NCBI GenBank assembly: GCA_964556365.1
Contig: CAZKVT010000008.1
Span: forward strand, 4,826 to 68,825
Reading direction: 5' to 3'
Length of the DNA: 64,000 bases
DNA from: an uncultured bacterium
Lineage (GTDB): Bacteria; Hydrothermota; UBA3072
The position numbers were made by a program, and so were the translations under genes. Under the pieces are notes generated by a model, which was given only the letters and a program-made list of their open reading frames with translations, was not told where the DNA came from and ran no database searches. Every line of letters starts with the position of its first letter. Within the stretch, counting starts at the first letter, position 1. This document shows positions 6,954 to 64,000 of this stretch, piece after piece.

Positions 6954-7825
6954 GTAGCTATTTCCTCCTTATTTGTATCAATATTTACTTTATTTTTATC
7001 AATTTTTTTAAGTTTGTTTATTACTTCATTAATAATCCAATCGGGTGTTGAAGCTCCTGATGCCACACCTACCCTCTCAACATCGGTAAACCATTCTTCT
7101 TTAATTTCATCCGCTTCTTCTATATGATAAGTATGAGAACCTTCTGCTTTTGCTATTCCCGCAAGCCTAGAAGTATTAGCGCTCTTTTTCCCGCCAACCA
7201 CTATCATTATATCAGATTTCCTAGCTAGTCTCTTCACTTCTCTTTGTCTTTTACTCGTAACATCACAAATCGTATTGAAAACCTTAAATTCCAGAATCTT
7301 AGGCAATATAAAGGCAGCGACCTCCTGAAGTATTTCCTGCGATTGAGTTGTTTGAACGACCAACCCTACTTTACTGTCGTTTATTTTTAAATTTCTCACC
7401 GAATCGATTACGCGAATACGCCCATCAGTTTCGCCTACAATACTAATCACCTCAGGATGCTCTTTCTCACCTATTACAAAAGTTTCATATCCTTCAGAAA
7501 CAAGCTGTTTGGCTTTTTCCTGCGCTTTTTTTACAAGCGGACAGGTCGCGTCCACTTCCTTAAGGTTTTTCTCTCTAATTTTCTTTAAAATTCTGGGGTG
7601 AACGCCATGCGACCGTATAATAACATATCCGGAATCGATTTCAGAAAGATCCTCAGCAGCAATTATACCTTCTTTTTCTAATCTTTTAACAACCTGAGGA
7701 TTATGTATTATATGACCGAGAGTCCAGACTTTTTCTTCCGTTTCTTTCCTTATCTGCCGGGCAATTCCTATTGCTCTTTTCACCCCAAAGCAAAACCCCA
7801 TATTCCTGGCAAGTTTTATTTCCAT
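6950..7825 (-). CDS. ispH: 4-hydroxy-3-methylbut-2-enyl diphosphate reductase
   Basis: 291 aa; NMGFCFGVKRAI start, HNPQVV, conserved Cys positions; classic ispH-rpsA adjacency. Confidence 0.93.
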   Translation of the reverse strand: MEIKLARNMGFCFGVKRAIGIARQIRKETEEKVWTLGHIIHNPQVVKRLEKEGIIAAEDLSEIDSGYVIIRSHGVHPRILKKIREKNLKEVDATCPLVKKAQEKAKQLVSEGYETFVIGEKEHPEVISIVGETDGRIRVIDSVRNLKINDSKVGLVVQTTQSQEILQEVAAFILPKILEFKVFNTICDVTSKRQREVKRLARKSDIMIVVGGKKSANTSRLAGIAKAEGSHTYHIEEADEIKEEWFTDVERVGVASGASTPDWIINEVINKLKKIDKNKVNIDTNKEEIAT

Positions 7826-8424
7826 CAGGCTAAACCCTTTATTTTGTTCATAATTTTCTCTGCCAATTCCCTGGCATTCTTCATATCAGGTCGCCCATAT
7901 TCCGGATAAATCGGAGCCCCAAATTTTACAGAAAGAGGAGTCTGTCTTAAAAAATGCTTCAACATCGATTCATGAGTTCCTGTAATTAAAACCGGAAGCA
8001 CAGGCACTTTTGTTTTTATGGAAAGATAACCTACTCCCGGCTGAGCCGGAAGAAATTCATTTGTTTTAGACCTGCTTCCCTCGGGAAACATCATAACAGC
8101 CCTTCCTTCATTTAAGAGATTAACAAAAAACCTCATAGACTTAATCCCCGGATTTTCTGTATCAACCGGCACAGCATGAACACTCCTTAGGACCCAGGAA
8201 ACAAACTTATTGATAAAGAGTCCTTTCTTCGACAGAAACGTAACCGGCCGACATCCGATACAACATCCAACAAGAGGAGGGTCATAATTGGAACGATGAT
8301 TTGGAGCAATAATAACTCCTCCCTTTTCAGGAACATTATCCGCCCCCTCTATTTTGAGTCCAAAAATTTTGTAAAACCCTAAAAATAGAAAGTGTCCTAT
8401 TTTATAAGGAACTGTAGCTTTCAT
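7825..8424 (-). CDS. plsC: 1-acyl-sn-glycerol-3-phosphate acyltransferase
   Basis: 199 aa; acyltransferase motifs NHRSNYDP (HX4D) and FPEGSRS. Confidence 0.85.
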   Translation of the reverse strand: MKATVPYKIGHFLFLGFYKIFGLKIEGADNVPEKGGVIIAPNHRSNYDPPLVGCCIGCRPVTFLSKKGLFINKFVSWVLRSVHAVPVDTENPGIKSMRFFVNLLNEGRAVMMFPEGSRSKTNEFLPAQPGVGYLSIKTKVPVLPVLITGTHESMLKHFLRQTPLSVKFGAPIYPEYGRPDMKNARELAEKIMNKIKGLA

Positions 8425-9073
8425 TAAGTTTTTTTATCTCGGATATCACAATGTCCACCTGTTCATCGATTGAAAGCGAACTCGTATCGAGCAAATACGC
8501 GTCGTCGGATTTTTTTAAAGGACTCTCCTTCCTTGTCGAATCATGATAATCTCTTCTCTTCAAATCCTTTTCTACTTCTTCCAGATTCTCTTTACTATCC
8601 TGCAGTCCTCTTCTTTTCGCTCTAACACCTACATCCGCGTCCATGTAAAATTTTAGATCAGCATCGGGAAAAACTACTGTCCCAATATCCCTACCTTCAA
8701 TTATCGCGTTATTATCATCAACTATTTTTCTTTGAATACCCACCAGGAATCTTCTTACTGCCTTCATCTTAGAAACAGGCGTAACAGCTTTATTGACTTC
8801 ATCGGTACGCAATTTATCGCTTATGTCTTCACCATTAACAATTGTTCTCTGTTCATTATTCACCTTTTCGATCTCGATATTCAACTCATCCAAAATCTGG
8901 GTAACCTTTTTCTCATCATTGGGATTTACACCTCGCCTCAAAACAAAATAAGCTACTGCTCTATAAGTCGCTCCGGTATCAAGATATAACCAACCCAGTA
9001 GCTTTGAAACTTTTCTGGCTGTTGTTGTCTTACCTGAACCTGAAGTCCCATCTATTGCAACTACAAATCCCAT
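8402..9073 (-). CDS. cmk: cytidylate kinase
   Basis: 223 aa; VAIDGTSGSGKTT P-loop, LDTGATYRAV, EGRDIGTVVFPDA. Confidence 0.93.
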   Translation of the reverse strand: MGFVVAIDGTSGSGKTTTARKVSKLLGWLYLDTGATYRAVAYFVLRRGVNPNDEKKVTQILDELNIEIEKVNNEQRTIVNGEDISDKLRTDEVNKAVTPVSKMKAVRRFLVGIQRKIVDDNNAIIEGRDIGTVVFPDADLKFYMDADVGVRAKRRGLQDSKENLEEVEKDLKRRDYHDSTRKESPLKKSDDAYLLDTSSLSIDEQVDIVISEIKKLNESYSSL

Positions 9074-11648: not shown

Positions 11649-12905
11649 ATGAATACAATCGCGATTGTAGGAAAACCAAACGTGGGAAAATCCACCCTTT
11701 TCAACCGAATACTAAAGCAAAAACGTGCTATTGTAGACAAACAACCCGGGGTAACAAGAGATAGAGTTTATGGTGTAACCGAAAGAGAAGGTAAACCTCT
11801 TATTTTAATCGACACGGGAGGGATTCGGTTTTCTGACGATCCGCTCGAAACTCAAATAATAGAACAGGTCAATTTTGCCCTGGATGAAGCTGATATCATC
11901 CTTTTATTGGTAGACGGAAGAGAAAATGTCTCCTCGCTCGATAGGAAAATCGCCGACCATATAAGAAAAGCCGAAGGGGAAAAAGCCCTTATCGTAAATA
12001 AAATGGATAAGGGAAAAGAATGGAATGTTTTAAATGAATTTAAAGAATTAATAATGGATGAAACTTTCCAAATCTCCGCTCAGCACGGAAACGGTGTCGA
12101 TAATCTTTTAGAATGGATCCTTTCAAATTGCGAAGAGGGAGAAATTGCAGAGGGAACCACAATAGGTATAATAGGGAAACCAAATACAGGAAAATCGACT
12201 TATGTTAACGCTATTATGGGATATGAACGTACAATTACAAAAGAAGAACCGGGAACCACAAGAGACAGCAGCCATTCATATCTTGATTATAACGAAAGAA
12301 CGATAATTCTGGTGGATACAGCCGGGCTTAAGAAAAAATCAAAATTAAAGGATTCTCTCGAGTATTATTCCTTCCTCCGCGCAATAAGAACCATAGAAGA
12401 ATCAGACATCGTTATCGTTTTAATCGATGCGTCAAAAAAAATCACAAGGCAGGATAAAAATATCATAAGATGGGCAATCGACAGGAAAAGACCTATAATA
12501 ATACTTCTTTCGAAATTCGATCTTATACCTGAGGAAAAAAAGAAAGAGATTATAAAGTATTATGATAAACAACTTTCCGTTTTTGATTGGATTCCCAAAT
12601 TGGCTATCTCTTCCCTGCGGAGAAAGGGTATCGGTGAATCTTTATCTTCGGCTCTCGAAGTTGTAGATAAGTTAGAAGACAAACACCCGGAGCTTGAAAC
12701 AATCGTCCGAAAAGCAATCGAGTATCGACCTCCTCCGGGCGCCAGGAAAAAAATAGTTTTGCATTCGGTTAAACAAGAGGGTAAAAATATTATTATAAAA
12801 ACAAACGAACAGAAAAGTTTTGATGAACAATACAAAAGATACCTTGAGAATAGAATAAGAAAGAAAATTGACTTCGAGGGAATCCCAATCTCGCTGAAGT
12901 TATAA
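11649..12905 (+). CDS. der: ribosome-biogenesis GTPase Der (EngA)
   Basis: 418 aa; two G domains (GKPNVGKST...DTGG and GKPNTGKST...DTAG) plus a KH-like C-terminus. Confidence 0.95.
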   Translation: MNTIAIVGKPNVGKSTLFNRILKQKRAIVDKQPGVTRDRVYGVTEREGKPLILIDTGGIRFSDDPLETQIIEQVNFALDEADIILLLVDGRENVSSLDRKIADHIRKAEGEKALIVNKMDKGKEWNVLNEFKELIMDETFQISAQHGNGVDNLLEWILSNCEEGEIAEGTTIGIIGKPNTGKSTYVNAIMGYERTITKEEPGTTRDSSHSYLDYNERTIILVDTAGLKKKSKLKDSLEYYSFLRAIRTIEESDIVIVLIDASKKITRQDKNIIRWAIDRKRPIIILLSKFDLIPEEKKKEIIKYYDKQLSVFDWIPKLAISSLRRKGIGESLSSALEVVDKLEDKHPELETIVRKAIEYRPPPGARKKIVLHSVKQEGKNIIIKTNEQKSFDEQYKRYLENRIRKKIDFEGIPISLKL

Positions 12906-12919
12906 AGGGGGTAACTTTT

Positions 12920-13498
12920 ATGTGGGAAGCATTAGCTTTCATCGGTTCTTATATTCTTGGAAGCATACCATTCGGTTTTGTTGTAGGAAAAGTTAAGGGA
13001 TATGATATCAGAAAAGAAGGAAGCGGAAATATCGGTTCCACCAACGTTTTTAGAGTGGCCGGAAAGAAAGAAGGCCTTTTCGTTTTTATCCTCGATTTTC
13101 TTAAAGGTTATCTTCCGGTACTTTACTTTACGGATATTTCAGTATTAGCCGGCATTCTTGCCCTGCTCGGAGCCATCGTCGGACACATGACAACACCTTT
13201 CCTTAAATTTAAGGGAGGAAAAGGAGTTGCAGCGGGTTTTGGAGGAATTATCGCGCTTATGCCCTTACCGGCAGCATTGGCTTTTGGGGTTTGGGTTTTA
13301 CTGGTCGGAATTACGAGAAGGGTATCTATCGGTTCTTTAGGGGCAGCGATCTCGCTACCCATCTTTTATTTTTATACCGGAGAACCTATGACTAAAATCG
13401 TTTTATATTTTTCTGTTTTAATTGCACTCCTGGTTATCATAACCCACAGGACCAATATAAGAAAACTTATTAGAGGAGAAGAAGAACCGATTTTTTAA
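12920..13498 (+). CDS. plsY: glycerol-3-phosphate acyltransferase PlsY
   Basis: 192 aa membrane protein; GSGNIGSTN and GGKGVA motifs; conserved der-plsY adjacency. Confidence 0.93.
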   Translation: MWEALAFIGSYILGSIPFGFVVGKVKGYDIRKEGSGNIGSTNVFRVAGKKEGLFVFILDFLKGYLPVLYFTDISVLAGILALLGAIVGHMTTPFLKFKGGKGVAAGFGGIIALMPLPAALAFGVWVLLVGITRRVSIGSLGAAISLPIFYFYTGEPMTKIVLYFSVLIALLVIITHRTNIRKLIRGEEEPIF

Positions 13499-13574
13499 AA
13501 TCGATCTTCCAATTTTAAAAATATAGAATTAATCAACTTTATATTTTTTTACATTTTTTATTATCTATAGACAA

Positions 13575-13624
13575 ATAATAAGTGGTCAGCTGAAAACCGT
13601 AACTATCAGCTGACCACTTATTAT
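13575..13624. terminator. bidirectional hairpin between convergent plsY and the T9SS-type gene
   Basis: Perfect 19-bp inverted repeat ATAATAAGTGGTCAGCTGA (13575-13593) / TCAGCTGACCACTTATTAT (13606-13624), 12-nt loop. Confidence 0.6.
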
Positions 13625-13641
13625 CATATTGGGGGTTTAAA

Positions 13642-15636
13642 TCAACGATACATTATAACAGTTTTTCTTGTCGCTATAAATTCATTTCCATTTGCCTGTA
13701 TTCTAACAAAATAAACCCCTTTTGGACTACCTTTCATATCAAATTCCTTCGAATAAAATCCAGCAGGCTTTTCTTCCGAAACGTCTTTGATTTTTTTACC
13801 GCTTATATCATATACAAACAGCTTTAAGGAAGCGTTTCTTGGAAGAGCATAATTAATTGTAAGTTTACTGCTCGGTATTACACCTTTAACATTAATAGCA
13901 TAACTCTTCGGTAATCCAATATTACCAATTGAAGAGACTGAAATCGAATCGATAGAAACAATAGAAAAAACTCCATCGCTTAAGTCCGACAGACTTCCGT
14001 CTAAATCCGCAATCCTCACCATGCAATTTTCCGAAGAAATACCGGCAGGAGTAAACCAATCAAAAGAACCATCATCTGCCGCGCTATCTGTAATAGTTAC
14101 CCAATTCGGCACCGAATCGCCTCCCGTCGAATCATAATATGCATCCAGCGTATATTCTATTTTGACCGTTCCGGATGTACCATAAGAATTCCATTCAACA
14201 TAATTAACGGTATCTGCATACCACGTCTCTCCGCCATTTGGTGAAGTTACTGTAATATATGGCTGTTCAGGAGTGCTATCAGCAGGAATAATGGAGAATA
14301 TATCATCACTTACATCCGATGGACTTCCGTCAACATCAATAATCCTCACCATGCAATTCTCCGAAGAAATACCGGCATGAGTAAACCACTCAAAGGAACC
14401 ATTATCTGCCGCGCTATCCGAAATCGTTACCCAATTCGTTACTGAATCGCCACCTGCTGAATCATAATACGCATTTGTTGTATATTCTATTTTTAATATT
14501 CCCGATGTGTTATAAGAATCCCATTCTATATAATTAGCGGTATCTGCATACCACGTCTCTCCGCCATTTGGTGAAGTTACTGTAATATATGGCACAAAAA
14601 CCGTATCGTGAGGAACAATGGAAAAAATATCACTTGCATCTTCCGGGCTTCCATCAACATCCGCAATCCTTACCATGCAATAATCCGAGGAAATATCCGG
14701 AGGGGTTAACCAGGCAAAATTTCCAGTATCTGACGCACTATCTGCAATTGTTATCCAATTAATCGAATCACCGATAGAATCGTATATATTGGGACTATAT
14801 TCTATTTTTACGGCCCCCGAAGTTCCGGAAGAACTCCAGATGATATAATTAACGGTATCCGCATACCATGTACCTCCACCACTCGGGGATGTTATTCTCA
14901 TATAAGGCTCCGGAACTGTATCACGAGGTACAATAGAGAAAACTCCATCGCTAACATCCGTCGGGTTTCCATCAACATCCGCAATCCTTACCATGCAATA
15001 ATGCGAGGAAATATCCGGAGGGGTCATCCATGCAAAAGAACCATTATCTACCACGCTATCCGTAATCGTTACCCAATTCGGCACCGAATCACCTCCGGTA
15101 GAATCATAATACGCATTTGTCGTGTATTCTATTTTAACCATTCCGGATATGTTATAAGAATCCCATTCGATATAATTAACAGTATCCGCATAATACGTTT
15201 CTCCACCATTTGGCGTCACTATATTAATATAAGAAGAATCCGGCGAAGACGAATCGGATACAATAGAAAACACTCTATCACTTACATCAGAAGCCCACCC
15301 ATATAAGGCAGACACCCTCACCAAACAATAATCCGAAGGCGTATCCGGAATTTTCCAGGAATAAGAACCATCATTCCTTGTTCGCTTGGTTAAAGATTCC
15401 CATGTAGAATCGTTATCGGTCGAATATTCTATTTTCACATATTTTATCCAACCTATAGACTTCCAGGTAATATTGTAGGTAGAATCAACACACCAAGCTT
15501 CTCCACCATTCGGGGACGCCACCTTAATTCTTGGGAATCGACTCCAATACAAGCTTTGAGAACCAGAAGATTCAATATCCTGACCCAATACAGCAAAAGA
15601 GAAAAAAAACAACAACAATACAAACTTTTTACTCAT
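13642..15636 (-). CDS. secreted repeat protein with T9SS-type C-terminal sorting domain
   Basis: 664 aa; signal peptide MSKKFVLLLFFFSFAVLG. Five tandem repeats (I.(I/V)(T/A)(T/S)P(N/S)GGE(T/A)(W/Y)...(Y/N)C(M/L)VR(I/V)..(D/G)...DVSD..FSI(V/I)). Last ~90 aa end in GVYFVRIQANGNEFIATRKTVIMYR. GGAGG RBS. Confidence 0.75.
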   Translation of the reverse strand: MSKKFVLLLFFFSFAVLGQDIESSGSQSLYWSRFPRIKVASPNGGEAWCVDSTYNITWKSIGWIKYVKIEYSTDNDSTWESLTKRTRNDGSYSWKIPDTPSDYCLVRVSALYGWASDVSDRVFSIVSDSSSPDSSYINIVTPNGGETYYADTVNYIEWDSYNISGMVKIEYTTNAYYDSTGGDSVPNWVTITDSVVDNGSFAWMTPPDISSHYCMVRIADVDGNPTDVSDGVFSIVPRDTVPEPYMRITSPSGGGTWYADTVNYIIWSSSGTSGAVKIEYSPNIYDSIGDSINWITIADSASDTGNFAWLTPPDISSDYCMVRIADVDGSPEDASDIFSIVPHDTVFVPYITVTSPNGGETWYADTANYIEWDSYNTSGILKIEYTTNAYYDSAGGDSVTNWVTISDSAADNGSFEWFTHAGISSENCMVRIIDVDGSPSDVSDDIFSIIPADSTPEQPYITVTSPNGGETWYADTVNYVEWNSYGTSGTVKIEYTLDAYYDSTGGDSVPNWVTITDSAADDGSFDWFTPAGISSENCMVRIADLDGSLSDLSDGVFSIVSIDSISVSSIGNIGLPKSYAINVKGVIPSSKLTINYALPRNASLKLFVYDISGKKIKDVSEEKPAGFYSKEFDMKGSPKGVYFVRIQANGNEFIATRKTVIMYR
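13957..15530 (-). repeat. five tandem coding repeats of ~100-110 aa (DNA period ~330 nt for the last two)
   Basis: e.g. CCGCCATTTGGTGAAGTTACTGTAATATATGGC recurs at ~14233 and ~14563; protein repeats 4 and 5 are near-identical. Confidence 0.85.
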
Positions 15637-17925: not shown

Positions 17926-18800
17926 GGTAAATGTTTCCGTTTCTCAAGATATTTTGTTAAAGCTTTATCATAAGGCGTATCGGTAATAATTCCGGAATAA
18001 TCAATACGTTTAGCAGCAAATTCAGTTTTATATTTTAAAATAAATTCCTCAAATTTATCTTTATATAAACTTCTTATATTTTTAGGATCCGTAAAAATAC
18101 TTATTCTATCCTCCATATCCCGGAATAAAGCCTCGGTACGATATGTTAAATTTAGTTCTTTTCTGTCTAAAATTTGAAAAACAATTACTTCGTGTTTTTT
18201 TGCCTTCATAACACTTATATTTTTGGTTACCTTATCGGGATCTTCCAATAAATCTGAAAATATTATAAAAAGACTTCTTTTTTTTATTAAAGGCAGAAGT
18301 TCAAATACGGAGTCGGAAACAGAAGTCTTTCCTGATGGTTCCTTTTTACTCAAAGTTGAGAACAAATGTTTCAGGTGATTCATACGACATCTAGCCGGAA
18401 TAAATGATTCTATCCTGGAATCGAAAAGAACCAATCCCACCGAATCATTTTGTTTTAACAGCAAATAAGCAATAGAAGCAGCGAGTGTCCGCGCGTAATG
18501 AAATTTAGAAATATTTTCTCCGAATCTCATGGAATTGCTTTTATCGAGCAATATATACGCCGATAAATTTGTTTCTGCCTGGTATTTCTTTAGATAAAAA
18601 CGCTCGGTCCGCGCGTATAATTTCCAATTAATTTTATTGATTGGATCACCCTGATAATAGGGACGGTGTTGCTTGAATTCCAGAGAAAAACCATGATAGG
18701 GACTTTCATGTAAACCGGTTAAGAACCCTTTAACAATTATTTGAGCCCTGAGGTTCAGGGTTCTTATTTTTTCTAAAACTTCAGGTTTTAAAAGTTCCAA
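17922..18800 (-). CDS. DUF58 family protein (MoxR/Bat-associated, vWA-like)
   Basis: 292 aa; G.H.S...G.S.EF...R.Y..GD....I.WK..AR pattern (GLHESPYHGFSLEFKQHRPYYQGDPINKINWKLYART); overlaps the next gene by 4 nt. Confidence 0.75.
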   Translation of the reverse strand: MELLKPEVLEKIRTLNLRAQIIVKGFLTGLHESPYHGFSLEFKQHRPYYQGDPINKINWKLYARTERFYLKKYQAETNLSAYILLDKSNSMRFGENISKFHYARTLAASIAYLLLKQNDSVGLVLFDSRIESFIPARCRMNHLKHLFSTLSKKEPSGKTSVSDSVFELLPLIKKRSLFIIFSDLLEDPDKVTKNISVMKAKKHEVIVFQILDRKELNLTYRTEALFRDMEDRISIFTDPKNIRSLYKDKFEEFILKYKTEFAAKRIDYSGIITDTPYDKALTKYLEKRKHLP

Positions 18801-56210: not shown

Positions 56211-56400
56211 GATTCTTCGAATCAGTTGAATGGTTGAATAGTTGAATAGTTGAATAGGAAAAACAAAAGAAGAGTTCCTTGACAACCATCAAGGTTTCTC
56301 ATATAATATTTGAAATAAGGGGATAAAAATATGAGATTTTTAAAGATTTTGTTTTTAACATATTTAGTTTTGGCGTTAATACTTCCTTGTAAATCATTAG
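56211..56400 (+). repeat. copy 2 of duplicated GTTGAAT array + promoter + 5' coding block
   Basis: GATTCTTCGAATCAGTTGAATGGTTGAATAGTTGAATAGTTGAAT (4 units vs 3 in copy 1)...CCTTGACA-N17-TATAAT...ATGAGATTTTTAAAGATTTT. Confidence 0.85.
56279..56307 (+). promoter_or_regulatory. consensus sigma-70 promoter (paralog 2)
   Basis: TTGACA 56279-56284, exact 17-nt spacer, TATAAT 56302-56307. Confidence 0.65.
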
Positions 56401-56864
56401 CGGATGAACCCGATACACTGTCCGATACACTAACGGTAAAAGATAAAACCGAACAAGAAGCGGATAAACCCGATACACTGTCCGATGCACTAATAGTAAA
56501 ATATAAAGCCGAACAACAGGCTGAAAAAGATGTAAACAAAGCCTGCTGGTTTGGAGTGGGGTTAGGGTTCAATATAATAGGAACTGGATTAGCTATTGCA
56601 ATGCCTCCTTCTCCGGACCCGGTGCAATTTGCGGGTAAATCTCCGGAGTATATCAGAATGTATACAGACGCTTACAAATCCAGAGCAAAGGAAATACAAA
56701 CCACGTACAGTTTTATGGGATGCGCGACAGCTGTGACTGTTAGTGCGTGCGTAACCATCTACTTAATCAATGAAGCTGCTAATGACTGTGTTGGATGTAT
56801 GGAGTACGCTGCCGAAGATGAATCGAGCAGCTGCAGCGATTGCTCGAGCGCTCCTCCGGAGTAA
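56331..56864 (+). CDS. signal-peptide/2-TM membrane protein with Cys-rich tail (paralog 2)
   Basis: 177 aa; same signal peptide and core (KACWFGVGL, FAGKSPEYIRMYTDAYKSRAKEIQT) as 52712..53251, plus a 2x20-aa insert; tail CVGCMEYAAEDESSSCSDCSS. Confidence 0.5.
   Translation: MRFLKILFLTYLVLALILPCKSLADEPDTLSDTLTVKDKTEQEADKPDTLSDALIVKYKAEQQAEKDVNKACWFGVGLGFNIIGTGLAIAMPPSPDPVQFAGKSPEYIRMYTDAYKSRAKEIQTTYSFMGCATAVTVSACVTIYLINEAANDCVGCMEYAAEDESSSCSDCSSAPPE
56400..56519 (+). repeat. 2 x 60-nt in-frame tandem duplication
   Basis: GCGGATGAACCCGATACACTGTCCGATACACTAACGGTAAAAGATAAAACCGAACAAGAA vs GCGGATAAACCCGATACACTGTCCGATGCACTAATAGTAAAATATAAAGCCGAACAACAG. Confidence 0.85.
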
Positions 56865-57277: not shown

Positions 57278-59155
57278 GTGTCTTCAAATATTTTAAAAGA
57301 AAGGTTAGAAAAAGAACAGTATGATAAACTGATACGGATTGACAATCCCGAACTGCATGAATTTGTCGCGAAATATATTGAACATTGTAATCCTGAAAAA
57401 GTATTCGTTTGTACCGATTCAAAAGAAGATATCAAATACATAAGAGAAGCCGCCATCAGGAATGGGGAAGAAATCGAACTCGCAAAAGAAAATCACACAA
57501 TTCATTTCGATAATTATTACGACCAGGCAAGAGATAAGAAAAACACAAAAATATTACTTTCCGAAGGAGTAGAACTCGATAAAACAATAAACACTGCCCC
57601 CAGAGAACAATCCCTTGAAGAAGTTCACGGAATAATGAAAGACATAATGAAGGGGAAAGAAGTATATATTAGATTTTTCAGTCTGGGACCCACAAACTCT
57701 GAATTCTCACAACCTACAATGCAAATGACAGATTCAGCCTATGTCGCTCACAGCGAAGACTTGCTTTACAGACAGGGATTCGAAGAATTCGTACGTCAGG
57801 GAAGAAACGCCCGCGCCTTTAAAATAGTCCACTCTGCGGGTGAACTCGATGTTCGAAATACAAGCAAAAATTTGGATAAACGCAGAGTGTATATAGACCT
57901 CGAAGAAAATACGGTTTACAGCGCGAACACTCAATACGGTGGAAACACAATCGGACTAAAAAAACTATCGATGCGTCTCGCGATTAACCGCGGAATAAAA
58001 GAAGGATGGCTAACAGAACATATGCTGGTCATGGGTGTTCATGGCCCTAATGATAGAGTTACGTATCTTACGGGCGCGTTTCCTTCTCTCTGCGGAAAAA
58101 CTTCTACCGCGATGCTGGATAATGAATCTGTTATCGGCGATGATATTGCTTATCTTAGAAAGAAAGATGGTAAAGTACGAGCGGTCAACGTCGAAAGCGG
58201 GGTATTTGGAATTATCATGGGAGTAAACTCCCTTGACGACCCCATAATCTGGGATGCTCTACATTCTAACGCGGAAATAATATTTTCCAATATTCTAATG
58301 ACACCCGAAGGTGGAGTTCACTGGATAGACAAAGACGGAGAAATACCCGAAAAAGGGATAAATCATTCGGGAGAATGGCATAAAGGCAAAAAAGATAAAG
58401 AAGGAAAAGAAATAACCCCCTCTCACCGAAATGCGAGATTTACTATCTCTCTGGAAAACTTCGACCACCGCGACCCAAAACTTCACGACCCAAAAGGAGT
58501 CGAAATAGGTGGTATAGTTTACGGCGGAAGAGACTCCGACACCTGGGTTCCAATCAAAGAATCTCTAGACTGGGCGCATGGAATAATAGCTTACGGTGCA
58601 TCGCTCGAATCGGAAACCACTGCCGCAACGTTAGGACAAGAGGGAGTAAGAAAATTCAACGTCATGTCTAACATGGATTTCCTTTCTGTTTCAATAAGAG
58701 ATTATATAAACGCGAACCTTGATTTCGCGAAAGGGTTAGAAAAAGAACCCAGTATATTCGCGGTCAATTATTTCCTTGTAGATAAAGACGGTAATTTCCT
58801 TAACTCGAGAGAAGACAAAAAAGTCTGGTATAAATGGGCAGAACTCCGGGCAAATAGAGACGTGGACGCGATAAACGCTCCAACCGGTCGCATTCCCAAA
58901 TACGAAGACCTGAAAAGACTCTTTAAAGAAGTTATAAATAAAGAGTTTACCGAAGAAGATTATAACGAACAATTCAAAATAAGAGTAAAAGAAAATATCG
59001 CGAAAATCGACCGAATCGAGGAAATTTACAGGACACAGATAATGGATGCTCCGAAAGTCGTTTTCGATGTTCTGGAAGAACAGAGAAAAAGACTCCTTTC
59101 AGCGCAAGCGAAGCATGGAGACTACATTCTTCCAGGAAACCTGGAAGAATGTTAG
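57278..59155 (+). CDS. pckG: phosphoenolpyruvate carboxykinase (GTP)
   Basis: 625 aa; GTG start after AAGGAGGG; FPSLCGKTSTAML kinase-1a motif, NARFT, GGRDSD. Confidence 0.95.
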   Translation: MSSNILKERLEKEQYDKLIRIDNPELHEFVAKYIEHCNPEKVFVCTDSKEDIKYIREAAIRNGEEIELAKENHTIHFDNYYDQARDKKNTKILLSEGVELDKTINTAPREQSLEEVHGIMKDIMKGKEVYIRFFSLGPTNSEFSQPTMQMTDSAYVAHSEDLLYRQGFEEFVRQGRNARAFKIVHSAGELDVRNTSKNLDKRRVYIDLEENTVYSANTQYGGNTIGLKKLSMRLAINRGIKEGWLTEHMLVMGVHGPNDRVTYLTGAFPSLCGKTSTAMLDNESVIGDDIAYLRKKDGKVRAVNVESGVFGIIMGVNSLDDPIIWDALHSNAEIIFSNILMTPEGGVHWIDKDGEIPEKGINHSGEWHKGKKDKEGKEITPSHRNARFTISLENFDHRDPKLHDPKGVEIGGIVYGGRDSDTWVPIKESLDWAHGIIAYGASLESETTAATLGQEGVRKFNVMSNMDFLSVSIRDYINANLDFAKGLEKEPSIFAVNYFLVDKDGNFLNSREDKKVWYKWAELRANRDVDAINAPTGRIPKYEDLKRLFKEVINKEFTEEDYNEQFKIRVKENIAKIDRIEEIYRTQIMDAPKVVFDVLEEQRKRLLSAQAKHGDYILPGNLEEC

Positions 59156-59184
59156 ATCGTTAGGCCGTTAGGTAGTTAGGTCGA
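59151..59184. repeat. left 8-mer array flanking the four-helix-bundle gene
   Basis: GTTAGATC GTTAGGCC GTTAGGTA GTTAGGTC GA, beginning inside the pckG stop codon. Confidence 0.8.
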
Positions 59185-59211
59185 TAAAAACTATAAAATT
59201 TTGGAGCATTA

Positions 59212-59589
59212 ATGGAAGGACACAAGACAAAAACACATCGAGATTTGGAAATCTGGCAGAGAGGAATAGATTTAGTCACTAAGATCTATAAAATAACAAA
59301 AAACTTCCCAAAAGAGGAACTTTACGGTTTAACATCTCAAATGAGAAGAGCGGCTATTTCTTATCCCAGTAATATTTCAGAAGGAGCTGCCCGTGATTCA
59401 ATAAACGATTATATTCGTTTCCTATACATATCTATGGGATCACTCTCCGAACTTGAAACACAAATAATTATTTCCGAAAAGTTAGGATACCTCAAAGATT
59501 CAAAAGATATACTTGAAGATATCGAAGCGATCACTCGAAAAACTTATAATCTGATAAAATATCTCAAATCAAAAAAAGATTCATCTTAA
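59212..59589 (+). CDS. four-helix-bundle protein (23S rRNA intervening-sequence protein family, TIGR02436-like)
   Basis: 125 aa; DLEIWQRGIDLV..IYKITKNFPKEELYGLTSQMRRAAISYPSNISEGAAR...FLYISMGSLSELETQ matches the family pattern as I recall it; GGAG RBS. Confidence 0.8.
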   Translation: MEGHKTKTHRDLEIWQRGIDLVTKIYKITKNFPKEELYGLTSQMRRAAISYPSNISEGAARDSINDYIRFLYISMGSLSELETQIIISEKLGYLKDSKDILEDIEAITRKTYNLIKYLKSKKDSS

Positions 59590-59692
59590 CGAACCAACGA
59601 CCTAACGATCCAACGAACCAACCAATATAGACCTAGGACTTATTACCCAATATTCCGATCCAACGAACCAACGACCTAACGATCCAACGATT
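59588..59692. repeat. right 8-mer arrays (inverted relative to the left array), containing a perfect 29-nt direct repeat
   Basis: AACGAACCAACGACCTAACGATCCAACGA at 59588-59616 and again at 59662-59690; units CCAACGAA CCAACGAC CTAACGAT. Confidence 0.85.
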
Positions 59693-59698
59693 ACAATC

Positions 59699-59726
59699 TT
59701 GACAAACTTGCAATTTCTTATATCTT
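59699..59726 (+). promoter_or_regulatory. sigma-70-type promoter of the tRNA-Glu/tRNA-Gln pair
   Basis: TTGACA 59699-59704, 16 nt, TATCTT 59721-59726; tRNA-Glu starts at 59736. Confidence 0.5.
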
Positions 59727-59735
59727 TTATGCGCT

Positions 59736-59810
59736 GGCCCCATCGTCTAGCCCGGCCTAGGATGCATGGTTCTCAGCCATGTGACAGGGGTTCAAATCCC
59801 CTTGGGGCTA
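59736..59810 (+). tRNA. tRNA-Glu (anticodon CTC)
   Basis: Hand-folded 75 nt: GGCCCCA/TGGGGCT acceptor (G1-U72), CATGG-TTCTCAG-CCATG anticodon arm, AGGGGTTCAAATCCCCT T-arm; no encoded CCA. Confidence 0.85.
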
Positions 59811-59828
59811 TACCATATATATAATTAC

Positions 59829-59902
59829 TGGGGTGTCGTCTAATGGCAAGGCACAGGACTCTGGATCCTGCTATCGGGGTTCGAATCCCTGCACCCCAGC
59901 CA
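59829..59902 (+). tRNA. tRNA-Gln (anticodon CTG), CCA encoded
   Basis: Hand-folded 74 nt: TGGGGTG/CACCCCA acceptor, CAGGA-CTCTGGA-TCCTG anticodon arm, GGGGTTCGAATCCCT T-arm, GCCA 3' end. Confidence 0.92.
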
Positions 59903-61549
59903 TTCTTTACGATTTTTCGAACACCAATTACCACCTGCGCTCCACCGCCCACCCAACCCATGCTCGTCCGCCTCGCCCGATGGCGCTCGGCGACCTCGCT
60001 TTGAGGTCGACCGCCCTTCCGCGGAATCTTCGCCAACTACGTCGGCTCGCCCCGCGGAATAGGCTCGGTGATTTCCGAGTCCTCGAATGTATCCCTCAGG
60101 CAAATAGAAAATGTCCAACGAAACTTCGTCAAGTCCATAAGATATGGACTTGATAAGACTTTGAAAAAGCTGGGGTCTGTCTTTGGGGGAAATTTCGCCA
60201 ATCTTTTTTGAAAAATCTTTTAAGTTTTCTAAAACAATTTTTGTTTCAAACTTTTCTTTTTCTTCTTTTTGAATTGAAAGTTTTATCCCCTCTAAATCAA
60301 ATTCCAAAACCTTTTTCTTGTTTTCGAGATTTTCGATTTCCTTCCTAACGGAAGGAAATCTCTCAATCCCCACTTCCGAGAGAATATCGATAAGATTTTG
60401 GAGTTTACTCCCCACCACCCTTAATTCATCGATTTTCTCTTTTTCTTGTTTTTTGAGGGGGCTTATTTTTAGTTCGTCGTTTTTGTTTGTTCTCTCGACT
60501 ATTTTGTTTATTGCTTTTTCGTCTTTGCTTATTTCCTTTAATTTGTATATGACAAAATCTTCGATTTTGTCCGCATTCACCGATTTAATATTACAGCTAT
60601 CCCACTCATGCTTATAAGTTTTTGTGCAGCGGTAATATTTTGTATATCTCGGAGTAATTCCGTCCTTATGTTTATTTTTTGTATAGGTCGGCGTCATGGT
60701 CGAACCGCATTCACTGCACTTAAGAAGACCCTGCAAAAAATAAACGTGGTCTATTTTCGTTTTTCTCTTATACCTTTTCTTGTGGAAGCTTTGAGCTTTT
60801 AAAAACATCGGCTCTGTTATTATCGGTTTATGGACTCCATCGTAAAGATTTTCTTTATACGGAAGTTTACCGTAATAAACAGGATTTCTTAAAATATTAT
60901 CTACGGTCGTTTTACTGAATTTCTTGCCTTTCCTTGTTTTATATTTTTTATTTATTCGTCTTCTTGTCTCCGCAAGCGACTTAGTTTCAATAAATATTTT
61001 AAACATTTCTTTTACAAATTCTGATTCTTCCGGGTTTATAACAAGTTTTTTATCTTTGTTCTTATATCCGTACGGAACAGTTCCTCCGTTCCACATTCCT
61101 TTCTCCGCTCTCTGATACATTTTATCTTTTGTTCTCTCCGCTGAGAGTTCCCGTTCAAACTGAGCGAAAGTTAGCATAATATTTCTTAAGAGTCTTCCCG
61201 AAGGAGTTGCAGTATCAAAGTGTTCTGTTATGGAAATAAAAGAAACTCCGTTACTGTCGAAAAGTTCAATCAAAGCGTAAAAATCTTTAGGCGACCTTGT
61301 CAGCCTATCGATTTTATAACAGAGTACACAATCGATTTTTCCGTCGATAATATCTTTAAGCATTCTGCCGAGTGCGGGTCTTTCGATATTCGCGCCGGAA
61401 TATCCGGGGTCACTATAAACCTGATAAAGTTTAAGCTCTTCCTGACTTTTAATGTAGGATTTTATCCGTTCTTCCTGGGCTTCGCAGGAGTTATATTCCT
61501 TTTCCGCTTGATTATCTGTTGATACTCGAGTGTATATCGCACATTTCAT
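59840..61549 (-). CDS. large serine recombinase (recognisable domains end near 60092; ORF tail reads through the GC-rich segment and antisense tRNA-Gln)
   Basis: 569 aa; catalytic CAIYTRVSTDNQ, resolvase domain, recombinase domain, zinc ribbon CSECGSTMTP...YYRC, long coiled coil; AGGAAGGAAG RBS. Confidence 0.9.
   Translation of the reverse strand: MKCAIYTRVSTDNQAEKEYNSCEAQEERIKSYIKSQEELKLYQVYSDPGYSGANIERPALGRMLKDIIDGKIDCVLCYKIDRLTRSPKDFYALIELFDSNGVSFISITEHFDTATPSGRLLRNIMLTFAQFERELSAERTKDKMYQRAEKGMWNGGTVPYGYKNKDKKLVINPEESEFVKEMFKIFIETKSLAETRRRINKKYKTRKGKKFSKTTVDNILRNPVYYGKLPYKENLYDGVHKPIITEPMFLKAQSFHKKRYKRKTKIDHVYFLQGLLKCSECGSTMTPTYTKNKHKDGITPRYTKYYRCTKTYKHEWDSCNIKSVNADKIEDFVIYKLKEISKDEKAINKIVERTNKNDELKISPLKKQEKEKIDELRVVGSKLQNLIDILSEVGIERFPSVRKEIENLENKKKVLEFDLEGIKLSIQKEEKEKFETKIVLENLKDFSKKIGEISPKDRPQLFQSLIKSISYGLDEVSLDIFYLPEGYIRGLGNHRAYSAGRADVVGEDSAEGRSTSKRGRRAPSGEADEHGLGGRWSAGGNWCSKNRKEWLGCRDSNPDSRIQSPVPCH
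59903..60092. other. GC-rich, C-skewed, hairpin-rich segment of unknown nature
   Basis: Hand count of 59931-60070: 98/140 G+C (C 62, G 36 on + strand) against AT-rich surroundings. Hairpins at 59989-60012 and 60064-60079; palindrome TTCCGCGGAA 60017-60026. Confidence 0.5.
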
Positions 61550-63009
61550 TTGCTTCCTTTCCTTTTTTTAGACTCTCTGCAAAACCTAACATACCATTTC
61601 TCTTTGACTATTAGCTTTTCGATATCTTTGTTTGAAAATCCTAAAAGCCCTAATAAACTTATTAAAAGTAAGAGTTTCAACTTTTGCAAAAGCTCAAAAA
61701 GTTCCTCTGACTCTGAAATTTGATCACGCGAAGAAGAATCTAGATGGGCTAAATAATTTCTATTCTTTGCAACTTTTTCACCAAAAGATTCATCATCTTC
61801 TACAAAATTTCTTGTTACCTCAGAATATTTTTTTATAATATATTTTAGTCTCGATTTCAAAGAAGGCTCATTACTATACTTTAGTCTAGATTTTAACCAG
61901 CTTTCATATTTATCAGGAACAGCTTCTAATATAATCTTAATTCTCTCTTCATGTCTTGTTTTATCCATCTCTTCGTTATTTTCAAAGATTCGGGGAAAAG
62001 ACTCAATTGCTTGAACTACATTCAAAAACTGATTTTGCAGAGAAAAATAACTCTCATCAAGTGTCAAGAAATGAATTTGATAAACAGATTCTAAAATTTT
62101 AGCATTCGCAAACCATCTATTCATTAAATCTTCCAATTTTCCAGCAACATCAGAAAATGCAAAAAGAAAATCATGCCTTGTTAAATATTCTGGCTTCTCT
62201 GGTAAACCTCGAAAAGAATAGAGGACATTTATTGACTTAAACTTATCTTTTTCTAAGTCCTGTATACCGGAAACAAATAAGGGATACACAGGCCACCTAA
62301 TAGAAAGGGATAAAAAACTCTGTATTACACTTAATACTTCTAGAAACCTCTTAAATTCTGTATATTTCTTATAATTCATACTTATGATACATTCTTGTAT
62401 TACTTCTACTTTATTGCTATCTCCTATTAAAGGAATTTTGTCAGGCTTTATAAAAAGCTCAATTTTAAGATCTTTACCTATGTTGAGAATAATAGGATCT
62501 TTCTCTTTGTAGTTAATAGTAAATCCTGTATCAAGGTCAATCTCTGCTTTGAGACCGCTAACATCAAACCACTTATCCAAATAAGTAAGTTTTGCATAAA
62601 CTTTATTAAATTTTATTTCATCAATGTTGTTAAAGTGAGCGCCAAAAAAAGCCGTCTGGGAAAAAATGGAATCACATTTAACACAGCTACCACTAAAATG
62701 TGGCCGAATATTAGAGCAACCAGTTAAAGTAACAATTTTGCCATTACATAATAAACCATGCATTAAATTTTCTTCTTCGCTCAGAAAAGAGGTCAAACTG
62801 GTCCGGCCTTTAATTTTTTTCCTAATATCAAAATCCTCGATTATATCTAACATTAACCCCTTTCTAGGATTAAAAGTGAGCGTTCCAGCTTTTTTTTCAT
62901 TGGCTTTAGAGGGATACCACCAAAGACCTTTAAAAGAATATTCTTTATTCAATTCAAATTTAACTCTATCAAAATTTACATCAGAAGGAATACTTCTAAT
63001 AAAATCCAT
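61546..63009 (-). CDS. ApeA-like HEPN-domain protein (candidate abortive-infection/defence nuclease)
   Basis: 487 aa; N-terminal FKGLWWYPSKANEKKAGTLTFNPRKGLMLDI, C-terminal helical region with NRNYLAH (R-x4-H); stop overlaps the recombinase ATG. Confidence 0.5.
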   Translation of the reverse strand: MDFIRSIPSDVNFDRVKFELNKEYSFKGLWWYPSKANEKKAGTLTFNPRKGLMLDIIEDFDIRKKIKGRTSLTSFLSEEENLMHGLLCNGKIVTLTGCSNIRPHFSGSCVKCDSIFSQTAFFGAHFNNIDEIKFNKVYAKLTYLDKWFDVSGLKAEIDLDTGFTINYKEKDPIILNIGKDLKIELFIKPDKIPLIGDSNKVEVIQECIISMNYKKYTEFKRFLEVLSVIQSFLSLSIRWPVYPLFVSGIQDLEKDKFKSINVLYSFRGLPEKPEYLTRHDFLFAFSDVAGKLEDLMNRWFANAKILESVYQIHFLTLDESYFSLQNQFLNVVQAIESFPRIFENNEEMDKTRHEERIKIILEAVPDKYESWLKSRLKYSNEPSLKSRLKYIIKKYSEVTRNFVEDDESFGEKVAKNRNYLAHLDSSSRDQISESEELFELLQKLKLLLLISLLGLLGFSNKDIEKLIVKEKWYVRFCRESKKRKGSK

Positions 63010-63308
63010 GGTCCCAAGAATATAAATTGATACTTAAAAATTTAGTAATATAAAGATAAAAAGTTAACGTATTCATTATAAAAGAAAGGTTAATAAGTCA
63101 ACAATAAAAGTCAAGGTTAACAAAAGTCAATTTTGTAAACGAATTGTAAAAAGATGTTTAAATTTGTGGCAATTTTCAAGTTTGCCTAATTGGTAAATAG
63201 TAAATCCTTGACTATTCTTAATTCTTTTGCAAAATAATATAAATAAATGAACTTAAATTTTAGGAAGCGATTATGCCTATTATAATTCTAAAAAAACCAG
63301 GTTGACAA

Positions 63309-64000
63309 ATGGCTGAAATAATAGATTTAACAGGTTATTTAATCTATGAATTCGAGGGCTTAAAAAGAAAACCCCTTAAAGGCAAATATACAGCAGAAAC
63401 CTTATCTAAAGTATTCATTCAAGAATGGGTTCCATACATAGAATGCCATGAATGCGGGAGATCTGACTATTGTAAATATGCTAAACCACACCCCCGTTTT
63501 CCTGGAAAAATGATAGAAATTAAATGTGGTATTGTAGAGAAAGCCATTTCAAATTTTGTTAGTAATACTTTTAATCTATTAAAAGATATGAACTCAGAGC
63601 AAATACAAAATTATATTGATGGCGCTTTTTATTTCTCTAATTTTATATATGCAGCAGAATTGTCTATAGGGAATTGCATTAATGACGATATTCTTGAACA
63701 CTTTAAAGAAACTTCACCCTCTATTTTTGGACATGTGGTTGCTTTAAGGGAAAAATTAAATGCCCTAGCAAGTGTTCTTCGCACTATTCCAAAATTCCGG
63801 ATATTCAAAGGTATTTTATTGGTAGAGGGATATTCTGAAAAAACATTTCTTGAAGAATTACGAGAAGCTCATTTTTATTGGACTCTTGAACCTACTGTCG
63901 AAGTATATGGTGGAAGGGGGGGAAAACGATTAAAAAGGATAGGAATGTTAGCTCGTAAGTATAAAGAACAAGGATATAAAATATATATTCAAGGTGACGC
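63309..64000 (+). CDS. Toprim-like domain protein with N-terminal Cys/His cluster (partial, runs off the right edge)
   Basis: Open from ATG 63309 to the window end; CHECGRSDYCKYAKPHP...KCG; FKGILLVEGYSEKTFLEEL ... GYKIYIQGD resembles the Toprim E...DxD layout. Confidence 0.4.
   Translation, partial: MAEIIDLTGYLIYEFEGLKRKPLKGKYTAETLSKVFIQEWVPYIECHECGRSDYCKYAKPHPRFPGKMIEIKCGIVEKAISNFVSNTFNLLKDMNSEQIQNYIDGAFYFSNFIYAAELSIGNCINDDILEHFKETSPSIFGHVVALREKLNALASVLRTIPKFRIFKGILLVEGYSEKTFLEELREAHFYWTLEPTVEVYGGRGGKRLKRIGMLARKYKEQGYKIYIQGD

Follow-up and report, generated by a model that had tools for sequence, protein, structure and literature searches.

The right end of a 64,000-nt stretch of DNA from an uncultured bacterium (Hydrothermota, lineage UBA3072; assembly GCA_964556365.1, contig CAZKVT010000008.1, positions 4,826 to 68,825), referred to here as the window, carries a putative integrative element that begins at a tRNA-Gln gene. 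Between this tRNA and the window edge lie the genes of a large serine recombinase (LSR), of the HEPN protein ApeA, and, divergently, of a Toprim nuclease-like protein. The features of the locus are the following (window coordinates):

59735-59811, + strand: tRNA-Glu(ctc), host gene upstream of the target tRNA (ARAGORN; Rfam tRNA, 52 bits)
59829-59902, + strand: tRNA-Gln(ctg), integration target (ARAGORN; Rfam, 58 bits)
59840-61549, − strand: LSR, 569 aa (Pfam, PDB sequence matches)
59897-59902, no strand: core/overlap CAGCCA, the last 6 nt of tRNA-Gln (alignment of junctions)
59897-60338, − strand: "P-long" arm, i.e., the last ~147 recombinase codons plus the core; left arm of a long inverted repeat
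59925-60095, − strand: GC-rich (65% GC) in-frame stretch of ~55 codons inside P-long
61546-63009, − strand: ApeA, 487 aa (Pfam, PADLOC)
63010-63308, no strand: AT-rich divergent intergenic region, 23% GC (GC count)
63309-64000, + strand, cut by the window edge: Toprim nuclease-like gene, first 230 of 363 codons

According to Pfam, the recombinase combines a Resolvase domain (PF00239, 2.4e-40, aa 4-153, with the motif YTRVSTDNQ), a Recombinase domain (PF07508, 7e-19), and a zinc ribbon (Zn_ribbon_recom, PF13408, 1.8e-14; Cys at 278, 281, 308, and 319), in agreement with a preliminary description of this DNA that had recognised an LSR with zinc ribbon. The PDB sequence matches are the integrases of TP901-1, A118, and SPbeta, the TP901-1 catalytic domain being matched at 6e-27, while aa 159-416 align to the C-terminal domain of the A118 integrase. 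Among phage contigs in IMG/VR the nearest relative is 54% identical, and most are 30-35% identical.

The open reading frame (ORF) of the recombinase crosses the attachment (att) core and ends inside the tRNA gene, which the preliminary description had overlooked. Reading against the direction of tRNA-Gln, the ORF extends 63 nt into the tRNA gene (59840-59902), up to its stop at 59840. Its final ~100 codons first cover the 65%-GC stretch, then encode SKNRKEWL (aa 544-551; nt 59920-59897), in which the core is read as TGGCTG (codons W-L), and finally follow the reverse complement of the acceptor and T arms of the tRNA. All aligned homologs, down to 44% identity, keep SKNRSEWL(P) in frame. After this motif the tails fall into several classes: reverse-complemented tRNA ("GCRDSNPD", "GRDSNPQPSGYK", and "GLDSN"), the "LDNFRTIPLRF" type, and "SIANHVRRWAEKQ". 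In clusters P0001 and P0002 (90% identity), four different tails follow ...KEWL, or KYL in one variant, on near-identical recombinases, which share at least 83% identity with that of the window. Since the tails diverge straight after the conserved C-terminal motif, the crossover core lies inside the ORF at TGGCTG, and the C-terminal tail of the protein therefore varies with the partner site. An ORF ending inside an antisense tRNA is found in 26 of the 54 related loci (11-114 nt inside the tRNA, at least 11 tRNA species) versus 2 of 77 LSRs on phage contigs; the overlap is a property of the clade.

The GC-rich stretch within P-long is specific to the window's subfamily, being absent from P0011, P0013, P0021, and P0022. 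Its RNA fold has an energy of −87.9 kcal/mol (z-score of −3.45 versus shuffles), and the alifold hairpin contains 3 pairs with compensatory changes among 6 arms (CCGCGG...CCGCGG, CCGCAG...CTGCGG, and CTGCGG...CCGCAG). The changes in the stretch are mostly non-synonymous, with the hairpin kept. It could be a structured RNA or DNA element within the coding region; an Rfam search of 59000-64000 (E up to 1) reports the two tRNAs only and no known RNA family for this stretch. Because the GC-rich part folds better than shuffles and has a compensatory hairpin, a role of the arms as a shared 3' end or terminator module is suggested, with few independent sequences behind the comparison.

Regarding the att sites, the junction at 59897-59902 is an attR-type hybrid (P arm, core, tRNA), because the recombinase ORF crosses the 6-nt core. 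The P half-site motif TTCGAA is located at 59916-59921, within P-long, and the T-loop TTCGAA of tRNA-Gln (59880-59885) would provide the motif of the B-type half-site. At the recombinase-side tip of 23 repeat pairs, ...GTTCG(T/A)A-N17-20-core precedes the tRNA in reverse complement. The partner arm has the identical tip and continues into a conserved flank (...TTAAAC..TTCAAACTTTCTCYATTATCTTACCAAAT...) with a mirrored GTTTGAA (GTTYGWA) motif. Because the tip is identical and the mirrored flank is conserved, the partner arm and its flank represent an intact inverted attP (P-core-P'). The flank (P') translates as the "LDNFRTIPLRF" tail. A GC-rich arm of ~290-410 nt, with the two variants F1 and F2, forms the P' side in the window's subfamily. 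Outward of CAGCCA, the junction alignment reveals at least four contexts (tRNA-Gln, F2, F1, and an AT-rich flank), and similarity switches at the core.

Five loci (L126, L114, L091, L116, and L119) contain two abutting repeat pairs, the second of which consists of P' arms around a cargo-only unit. Their outermost junction has the order host flank-core-P', with the core direct relative to the tRNA junction, and the outermost and tRNA junctions can be read as a canonical attL/attR pair. The outer host flank of L116 is the trailer of a tRNA and contains a terminator hairpin. These loci also bear on the second att site expected by the preliminary description, a direct repeat (~25 nt) of the 3' part of tRNA-Gln. 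Relatives repeat only the 6-nt CAGCCA, and the next copy is inverted, so that no such repeat closes the unit in them; a direct copy of the tRNA tip does exist in the same five loci, one further unit away. The proposal of a foreign element integrated at the 3' end of tRNA-Gln is itself supported, and junction comparisons with relatives fit it: the P tip is joined to many tRNAs, intact P-core-P' occurs elsewhere, and outer direct repeats are present. The tRNA-Glu/tRNA-Gln pair also adjoins related elements in L003, L252, and L253.

As had been noted, only the tRNA-proximal end of the element is visible in the window. Looking up the exact sequence of its recombinase, or of P0001, the representative of the recombinase's 100%-identical cluster, returns no contig extending the window, and the same look-up with ApeA returns two short Logan contigs only. 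One contig of the window's own strain, L001 (4138 nt), reaches further: its first 30 nt equal window 60309-60338, and its last 30 nt are their reverse complement. Since a de Bruijn contig that runs into a repeat is expected to share k−1 nt with it, here 30 nt, an inverted copy of part of the recombinase gene is placed after the Toprim gene at ~64425. The 30-nt inverted ends of L001 also set the inner end of P-long, which is 95% identical to L253 9910-10351 and 90% identical to both arms of L003. Despite different cargo, the inner boundary of the inverted P-long copy (it follows ...GAGATTTTCGA) falls at the same nucleotide in the window strain, L163, and L253.

The complete repeat is seen in relatives. 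At the same host locus of a related species (L003; PEPCK 87% identical), the tRNA-Glu and tRNA-Gln genes are followed by a 92%-identical recombinase with unrelated 780-aa and 487-aa cargo, and the unit has a perfect 344-nt inverted repeat, the left arm of which begins at the last 6 nt of tRNA-Gln. The window's host, a WOR-3/Stahlbacteria-like bacterium, has a PEPCK that reaches at most 87% identity with contigs of metagenome-assembled genomes. Long inverted arms are also present in L163, L085, L164, and L168. The last of these carries the same Toprim gene (89-90% nucleotide identity), beyond which lie 45 nt of the arm, an insert of 1.5 kb, the inverted arm in full (424 nt), the core, and an F arm. 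At least 30 nt of the inverted copy are seen in the window strain, and 344-442 nt in relatives. The L168 insert (a 175-aa protein and a DUF3800 protein) lies within the inverted arm, between 41-nt direct repeats of the arm's inner end (3255-3299 and 4795-4835), which marks it as cargo gained through recombination at the boundary of the arm.

A census was restricted to complete genes with at least 1 kb of upstream sequence and to repeats of at least 60 nt. Of the 31 metagenomic relatives (36-94% identity), 19 have an inverted repeat one arm of which lies on the 3' end of the recombinase gene, as opposed to none of the 59 phage LSR loci from IMG/VR. These counts bear on the view that the locus is an ordinary remnant of a prophage or of an integrative and conjugative element, with a serine integrase that happens to lie at a tRNA and repeats that are artefacts or due to chance. 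Serine integrases are indeed common at the edge of an element, next to its att site, and several of the repeats occur at contig starts with lengths near assembler k-mer sizes. However, the arms in L102, L118, L129, L145, and L163 have diverged to 77-97% identity, so the inverted repeat is no assembly artefact, and it is present in JGI, ENA, NCBI, and Logan assemblies alike. Furthermore, complete elements of 3-8 kb are devoid of phage and conjugation genes, and the nearest IMG/VR relative is distant, as given above. A remnant is therefore considered highly improbable.

In L003, L085, and L091 the arms are 100% identical within the genome, compared with ~10% divergence between genomes, and gene conversion may keep the long arms identical. 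The same contrast would fit ongoing exchange in an invertible, phase-variable cassette, in which the two inverted sites, or the arms via RecA, flip the unit; such flipping could hold besides integration. Much as in the Hin/Gin/Cin segments, it would change which operon faces outside promoters, or else the recombinase tail (encoded by the tRNA or by F). The geometry is suitable, since the recombinase gene lies inside, the core is at the outer ends of the inverted repeats, and the duplicated 3' end keeps the gene intact both ways. Genes in the recombinase units read outwards into both arms, and the same recombinase is seen joined to tRNA-Gln or to F2. In contrast, no contig pair has the same unit both ways between the same flanks; five L253-type samples agree with each other, although short reads do not exclude minor isomers. 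The enzyme, moreover, is a phage-type large serine integrase rather than a small invertase with a C-terminal helix-turn-helix (HTH), and the many tRNA flanks and outer direct repeats indicate integration, not a fixed switch. Such a cassette thus appears rather unlikely.

As for the cargo, the 487-aa protein contains both domains of ApeA according to Pfam: ApeA_NTD1 (PF18862, 1e-41, 143.7 bits with a cut-off of 25.5) and HEPN_Apea (PF18739, 1e-30, 107.4 bits with a cut-off of 24.4), the latter with RNYLAH (Rx4H) at aa 417. The HEPN protein with an R-x4-H motif that had been proposed earlier is identified in this way as ApeA. The best PADLOC match is the candidate family PDC-S58 (3e-87), with no named ApeA model, and a PDB sequence search with ApeA gives no match. 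Gao et al. reportedly described ApeA in 2020 as a single-gene anti-phage system. According to a preprint (bioRxiv 10.64898/2026.01.26.701840), members of the family are HEPN tRNases that protect against phage by cleaving tRNA once activated by deoxydinucleotides.

The overlap of the ApeA stop with the recombinase start, noted earlier, is read directly as ATGA at 61546-61549, preceded by AGGAAAGGAAG. A co-oriented gene directly upstream of the recombinase is found in eight of the related loci examined, so cargo in front of its own recombinase, which had been regarded as an unusual layout, is common in the clade. The gaps to the recombinase are −4 nt for ApeA, −8 for a TPR protein, +3 for a KAP NTPase, +5 for a TIR protein, +16 for an OLD-like protein, +27 for a methylase, +65 for an unknown protein, and +185 for a Schlafen-ATPase. 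The close relatives L252 and L253 have no co-oriented gene in this place. The recombinase is probably co-transcribed with whichever cargo precedes it, i.e., with ApeA in the window. The cargo adjoining the recombinase is variable and mostly of defence type:

window: ApeA
L085: Schlafen/AlbA_2 and HATPase_c_4
L086: OLD/GajA-like
L083: N6/N4 methylase
L167: TIR with HTH_17
L091: KAP NTPase
L164: TPR protein
L163: PKD protein with caspase-like and DUF4384 proteins
L003: unknown 780-aa protein

The divergent gene, which begins at 63309, runs off the window edge, as described previously; the Logan contig L001, which encodes an identical ApeA, supplies the full 363-aa protein and places the gene end at ~64400. 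Pfam and PADLOC profiles, suggested as a check, are informative for ApeA; for the 363-aa protein Pfam reports only a sub-threshold OLD-like_TOPRIM match (E 0.078), and no PADLOC model matches it. A database search yields 34 homologs, none with a Pfam domain, and a back-translated pattern scan of the genome collection finds no relatives. An alignment of 31 homologs has invariant C46, C49, C55, C73, E173 (VEG), and D230xD232 (QGDADG), of which E173 and D230xD232 constitute the Toprim signature (catalytic Glu and DxD). The AlphaFold2 model has a predicted local distance difference test value of 89, and the top Foldseek matches are GajA, the OLD C-terminal Toprim region, and PARIS (8j4t, 6njx, and 6nk8 with probability 0.98-1.0), with a template modelling score of ~0.52 on the OLD C-terminal region as target. 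The earlier Toprim-like assignment is thus supported by both signature residues and fold.

The N-terminal half of the protein is a Cys4 and helical domain. Neither Pfam nor PADLOC reports an ATPase domain, and the neighbouring genes encode ApeA or, in relatives, a 214-aa protein. Since no ATPase domain or partner is present, the protein is classified as Toprim-nuclease-like only and not as a member of OLD or Gabija; the predicted structure argues for an ATPase-less nuclease of the OLD class. Furthermore, because the same Toprim gene stands beside the 214-aa protein rather than ApeA in relatives, ApeA and the Toprim gene are no obligate pair. ApeA, as a HEPN tRNase acting by abortive infection, and the Toprim nuclease would together form the defence cargo of the unit, and the ATPase-less Toprim protein is a candidate defence gene not yet characterised.

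Complete elements of relatives suggest how the window unit may continue. One compact example, L126 (3.2 kb, at tRNA-Gln(ttg)), has HEPN and 137-aa genes in one unit and the recombinase in the other. L091 (8.4 kb) consists of an AlwI restriction-modification unit and a unit with the KAP NTPase and the recombinase; an antisense tRNA-Asn overlaps the end of the recombinase ORF, and recA is the next gene. The 24-kb contig L253 has a recombinase at least 90% identical to that of the window and the same tRNA-Gln/tRNA-Glu pair. Its recombinase surroundings recur in contigs from five samples, and the whole array is spanned by L253 only. The four cores alternate (CAGCCA at 2667, TGGCTG at 10346, CAGCCA at 14347, and TGGCTG at 18296), and every junction has one polarity: P-type arm, TGGCTG, then an F arm or tRNA-Gln. 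The units of this array are:

an F-armed unit, cut by the contig start
a P-armed unit, with the recombinase
a second F-armed unit, with arms of 411 nt, 96% identical
a unit that lacks the recombinase and has degenerate P-type arms (78% identical), against the tRNA

By this comparison the window would correspond to the tRNA-proximal, recombinase-bearing unit of an L253-like structure. Two further observations concern this contig. The 887-aa protein encoded upstream of the recombinase (5766-8429) is internally repetitive, with offset direct self-matches of 67-85% identity and no Pfam match on record. Besides, the two F-armed units at 686-2556 and 12372-14277 have 84%-identical Transglut_core2 gene sets in direct orientation, an apparent duplication of a cargo unit within the array.

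Such arrays could also arise if each unit bounded by inverted repeats were its own transposon-like element, autonomous when it carries a recombinase and non-autonomous otherwise, with arrays growing by serial insertion at the cores. Recombinase-less units with their own arm pairs are known in L091 (restriction-modification), L126 (HEPN), and L253 (U2 and U3), and in L114, L126, and L133 the proximal pair surrounds the recombinase gene alone, in the manner of an insertion sequence. The arms of L163 come from two different lineages, and in L164 a second, distantly related recombinase unit lies within another unit's arm. However, the polar core is in inverted orientation at the two ends of a unit, which would lead to inversion and not excision, unless the crossover dinucleotide is the palindromic GC of caGCca, and the strict alternation of P-type and F-type arms in L253 fits paired movement better than that of single units. 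We regard independent units of this kind as unlikely.

As a separate observation, the second LSR unit of L164 (1609-5745) encodes a recombinase of 531 aa, preceded by a TPR gene (740 aa) that overlaps it, and has inverted arms of its own (169-191 nt). The unit stands in place of the last 87 nt of the other recombinase's arm, so that the two recombinase genes are convergent, with an overlap of 165 nt; this has the look of nesting or displacement.

Taken together, the right end of the window is quite probably the tRNA-proximal unit (U1) of a small integrative defence island built by a clade of LSRs that target tRNA tips. U1 contains the recombinase, ApeA directly upstream of it, and the divergent ATPase-less Toprim nuclease gene. 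Its far side would be closed by an inverted copy of the last ~340-440 nt of the recombinase gene, as seen in relatives. In the window strain this copy should be joined via the same core to the partner arm (P' or F), giving the intact inverted attP; beyond it, a second cargo unit between inverted F arms and, finally, an attL-type junction with a short direct repeat of the tRNA tip would follow. The whole element would be equivalent to a circle in which two inverted attP regions separate two cargo units and which is integrated via one attP, presumably by attP x attB recombination at tRNA tips. Since cores two apart are direct, pairs of units would be the mobile entity, and arrays of such units could accumulate at one tRNA. 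The arms may additionally provide homology for swapping cargo by homologous recombination. With respect to the integrative defence island proposed in the preliminary description, its integration and cargo parts hold, and the boundary is revised to the inverted copy of the recombinase 3' end in place of a direct tRNA repeat.

Several points weigh against this explanation. For the window strain the inverted copy is visible over its first 30 nt only, with the rest extrapolated from relatives, and extra genes may lie between the 30-nt piece and the full arm, as in L168. Short-read assemblers do not phase perfect repeats of 100-440 nt, so the arm joined to the recombinase body may be the assembler's choice in some contigs. 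L252, a 175-kb contig from the same host locus, has no inverted repeat in the 804 nt between the recombinase and the contig start. A PEPCK-anchored scan of 80 loci found no empty tRNA-Gln site; it found the tRNA-Glu/Gln pair kept only in L003, where it is occupied, and in L006. No circular form was found either: L163, with both attPs intact around the recombinase unit, ends without suffix-prefix or terminal-inverted overlap. Because neither form was found, it is from the junction comparisons only that we infer integration and excision. No recombination directionality factor was recognised, and the compact elements L126 and L114 hold only the recombinase and 1-2 cargo genes. Moreover, serine integrases are not known to recombine attP with attP, attL, or attR, so that by the standard rules an internal attP has no partner after integration. 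These rules account neither for the retention of the inverted attP nor for arrays of more than two units.

Three details stand beside these points. L163 would fit an un-split form of the circle. The contig L006, from a related metagenome-assembled genome (PEPCK 82% identical; tRNA-Gln at 4173-4244), stops at the last base of tRNA-Gln, as would be expected if a repeat-bounded element follows the tRNA there too. A 147-aa ORF over the F2 arm (L253-L257) was considered as an excision factor and is probably spurious, since it starts in the core, is GC-rich, and is uncalled over the L163 F2 arm.

A broader version of the defence-island explanation is possible, albeit tentative: the clade may build cassette platforms at tRNAs, in which defence units between alternately inverted attP-like sites and long arms are flipped, exchanged, or moved in pairs. 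If true, this would be integron-like gene exchange by a serine integrase, with the C-terminal tail of the recombinase rewritten at each junction. Should the inverted sites be active, serine integrases would have a novel means of flipping or exchanging cassettes, and the clade could be a source of integrases with natural multi-site logic for genome engineering. Should the arms act only as homology, they would still account for the exchange of cargo around an integrase that remains 90% identical.

Regarding composition, the GC content is 0.37 for the window, 0.31 for ApeA, 0.33 for the visible part of the Toprim-like gene, and 0.23 for the intergenic stretch between both. The promoters of the ApeA-recombinase operon and of the Toprim-like gene are presumed to lie in this stretch (63010-63308). 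Sigma-70-like matches on both strands of the region are no commoner than in shuffled sequence, and the promoters are thus placed there by inference only; a terminator scan likewise does no better than shuffles.

To the left of the tRNAs, only housekeeping and envelope genes had been reported, which does not hold for the gene directly adjacent to them (59212-59589): it encodes a four-helix-bundle protein similar to 23S-rRNA-IVP/bAvd. The gene is flanked by arrays of an 8-nt unit (AACGAACC / CGATCCAA) at 59151-59183, 59588-59622, and 59656-59691, the upstream array being the inverted complement of both downstream arrays, and part of the downstream array recurs in L003 directly before tRNA-Glu. 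Further to the left, 56399-56518 consists of two tandem 60-nt copies with 88% identity.

Among known systems, the closest layout is that of the Dehalococcoides ssrA islands (DsiB, a CcrB homolog), in which the LSR gene is at the edge on the opposite strand to the RNA gene, the att repeat lies in the ORF, cargo is variable, and several islands are stacked at one site, bounded by direct repeats only; their description (PMC3146451) does not mention inverted repeats. The edge LSR next to an RNA gene, the att core in the ORF (the window and 26 of 54 relatives), variable cargo, and stacking at one site are shared with these and SCCmec-type islands. In contrast to them, adjacent cores are inverted here and only every second one is direct, the tRNA repeat is 6 nt and not ~20, each unit is enclosed by inverted arms of 100-700 nt, with the 3' end of the recombinase gene duplicated in one of them, and there is no second small recombinase of DsiA/CcrA type. 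The phage serine integrases (phiC31, Bxb1, TP901-1, A118, and SPbeta SprA) have the same Resolvase, Recombinase, and zinc ribbon domains and, likewise, att sites that are short and dyad-symmetric around a small core; in the present elements the half-site motif is GTTCGAA. However, the long inverted repeat, the tRNA overlap, and the att core in the ORF set the elements described here apart from them.

Inverted repeats carrying crossover sites (in relatives; 30 nt in the window) are also typical of serine invertase segments (Hin, Gin, Cin/P1 C segment, and Pin) and of the 2-micron circle (Flp). The P1 C segment has ~0.6-kb repeats with cix at the outer ends, and in the yeast 2-micron circle two 599-bp inverted repeats separate two unique regions. 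The latter layout matches the circle suggested above for the tRNA-tip LSR elements. The P1 cix sites as such are confirmed in bioRxiv 10.1101/2022.07.24.501295. Those systems, however, rely on small serine invertases with a Fis enhancer or on a tyrosine recombinase, with neither tRNA integration nor variable defence cargo, whereas a 569-aa LSR of integrase type is found here, and no locus is seen in both orientations, unlike Hin/Gin/Cin.

As for the cargo proteins, the window ApeA, known from sequence alone, agrees with known ApeA in both Pfam domains above cut-off and in the Rx4H motif, and differs in the overlap of its stop with the recombinase start and in having PDC-S58 as best PADLOC model. 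The 363-aa protein shares its predicted C-terminal fold and the catalytic E and DxD with P2 Old, Gabija GajA, and PARIS; unlike these, it has an N-terminal Cys4 and helical part and lacks both the ABC ATPase and a partner gene (e.g., AriA).

Tycheposons are small elements at tRNA genes with defence or adaptive cargo, 27 of 937 having a large serine recombinase (bioRxiv 10.1101/2020.12.28.424599); in that source "inverted repeat" occurs in the reference list only. The elements described here resemble them as small cargo carriers at tRNA genes. They differ in the recombinase, since tycheposons mostly use tyrosine recombinases, and many of those also have replication genes. IS607 lacks terminal inverted repeats, and its small serine recombinase has the HTH at the N-terminus, in contrast to the LSR with C-terminal DNA-binding domains and the long inverted arms found here. 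The repeat-flanked restriction-modification units of Furuta et al. 2010, with 26-65-bp repeats and 8-bp target duplications, differ in kind from the long-arm units.

Literature searches for the design (long inverted repeats, or an inverted attP inside the element of a serine integrase) returned no matching description. The parts (serine integrase, ApeA, and Toprim nuclease) are known, and the architecture is, as far as could be checked, a new variation on a known type. What is uncommon in comparison with the systems above is a construction shared across a clade of serine integrases from uncultured bacteria: a core in the integrase ORF, an inverted copy of its tail, an intact inverted attP inside, and defence units with alternating cores at one tRNA.

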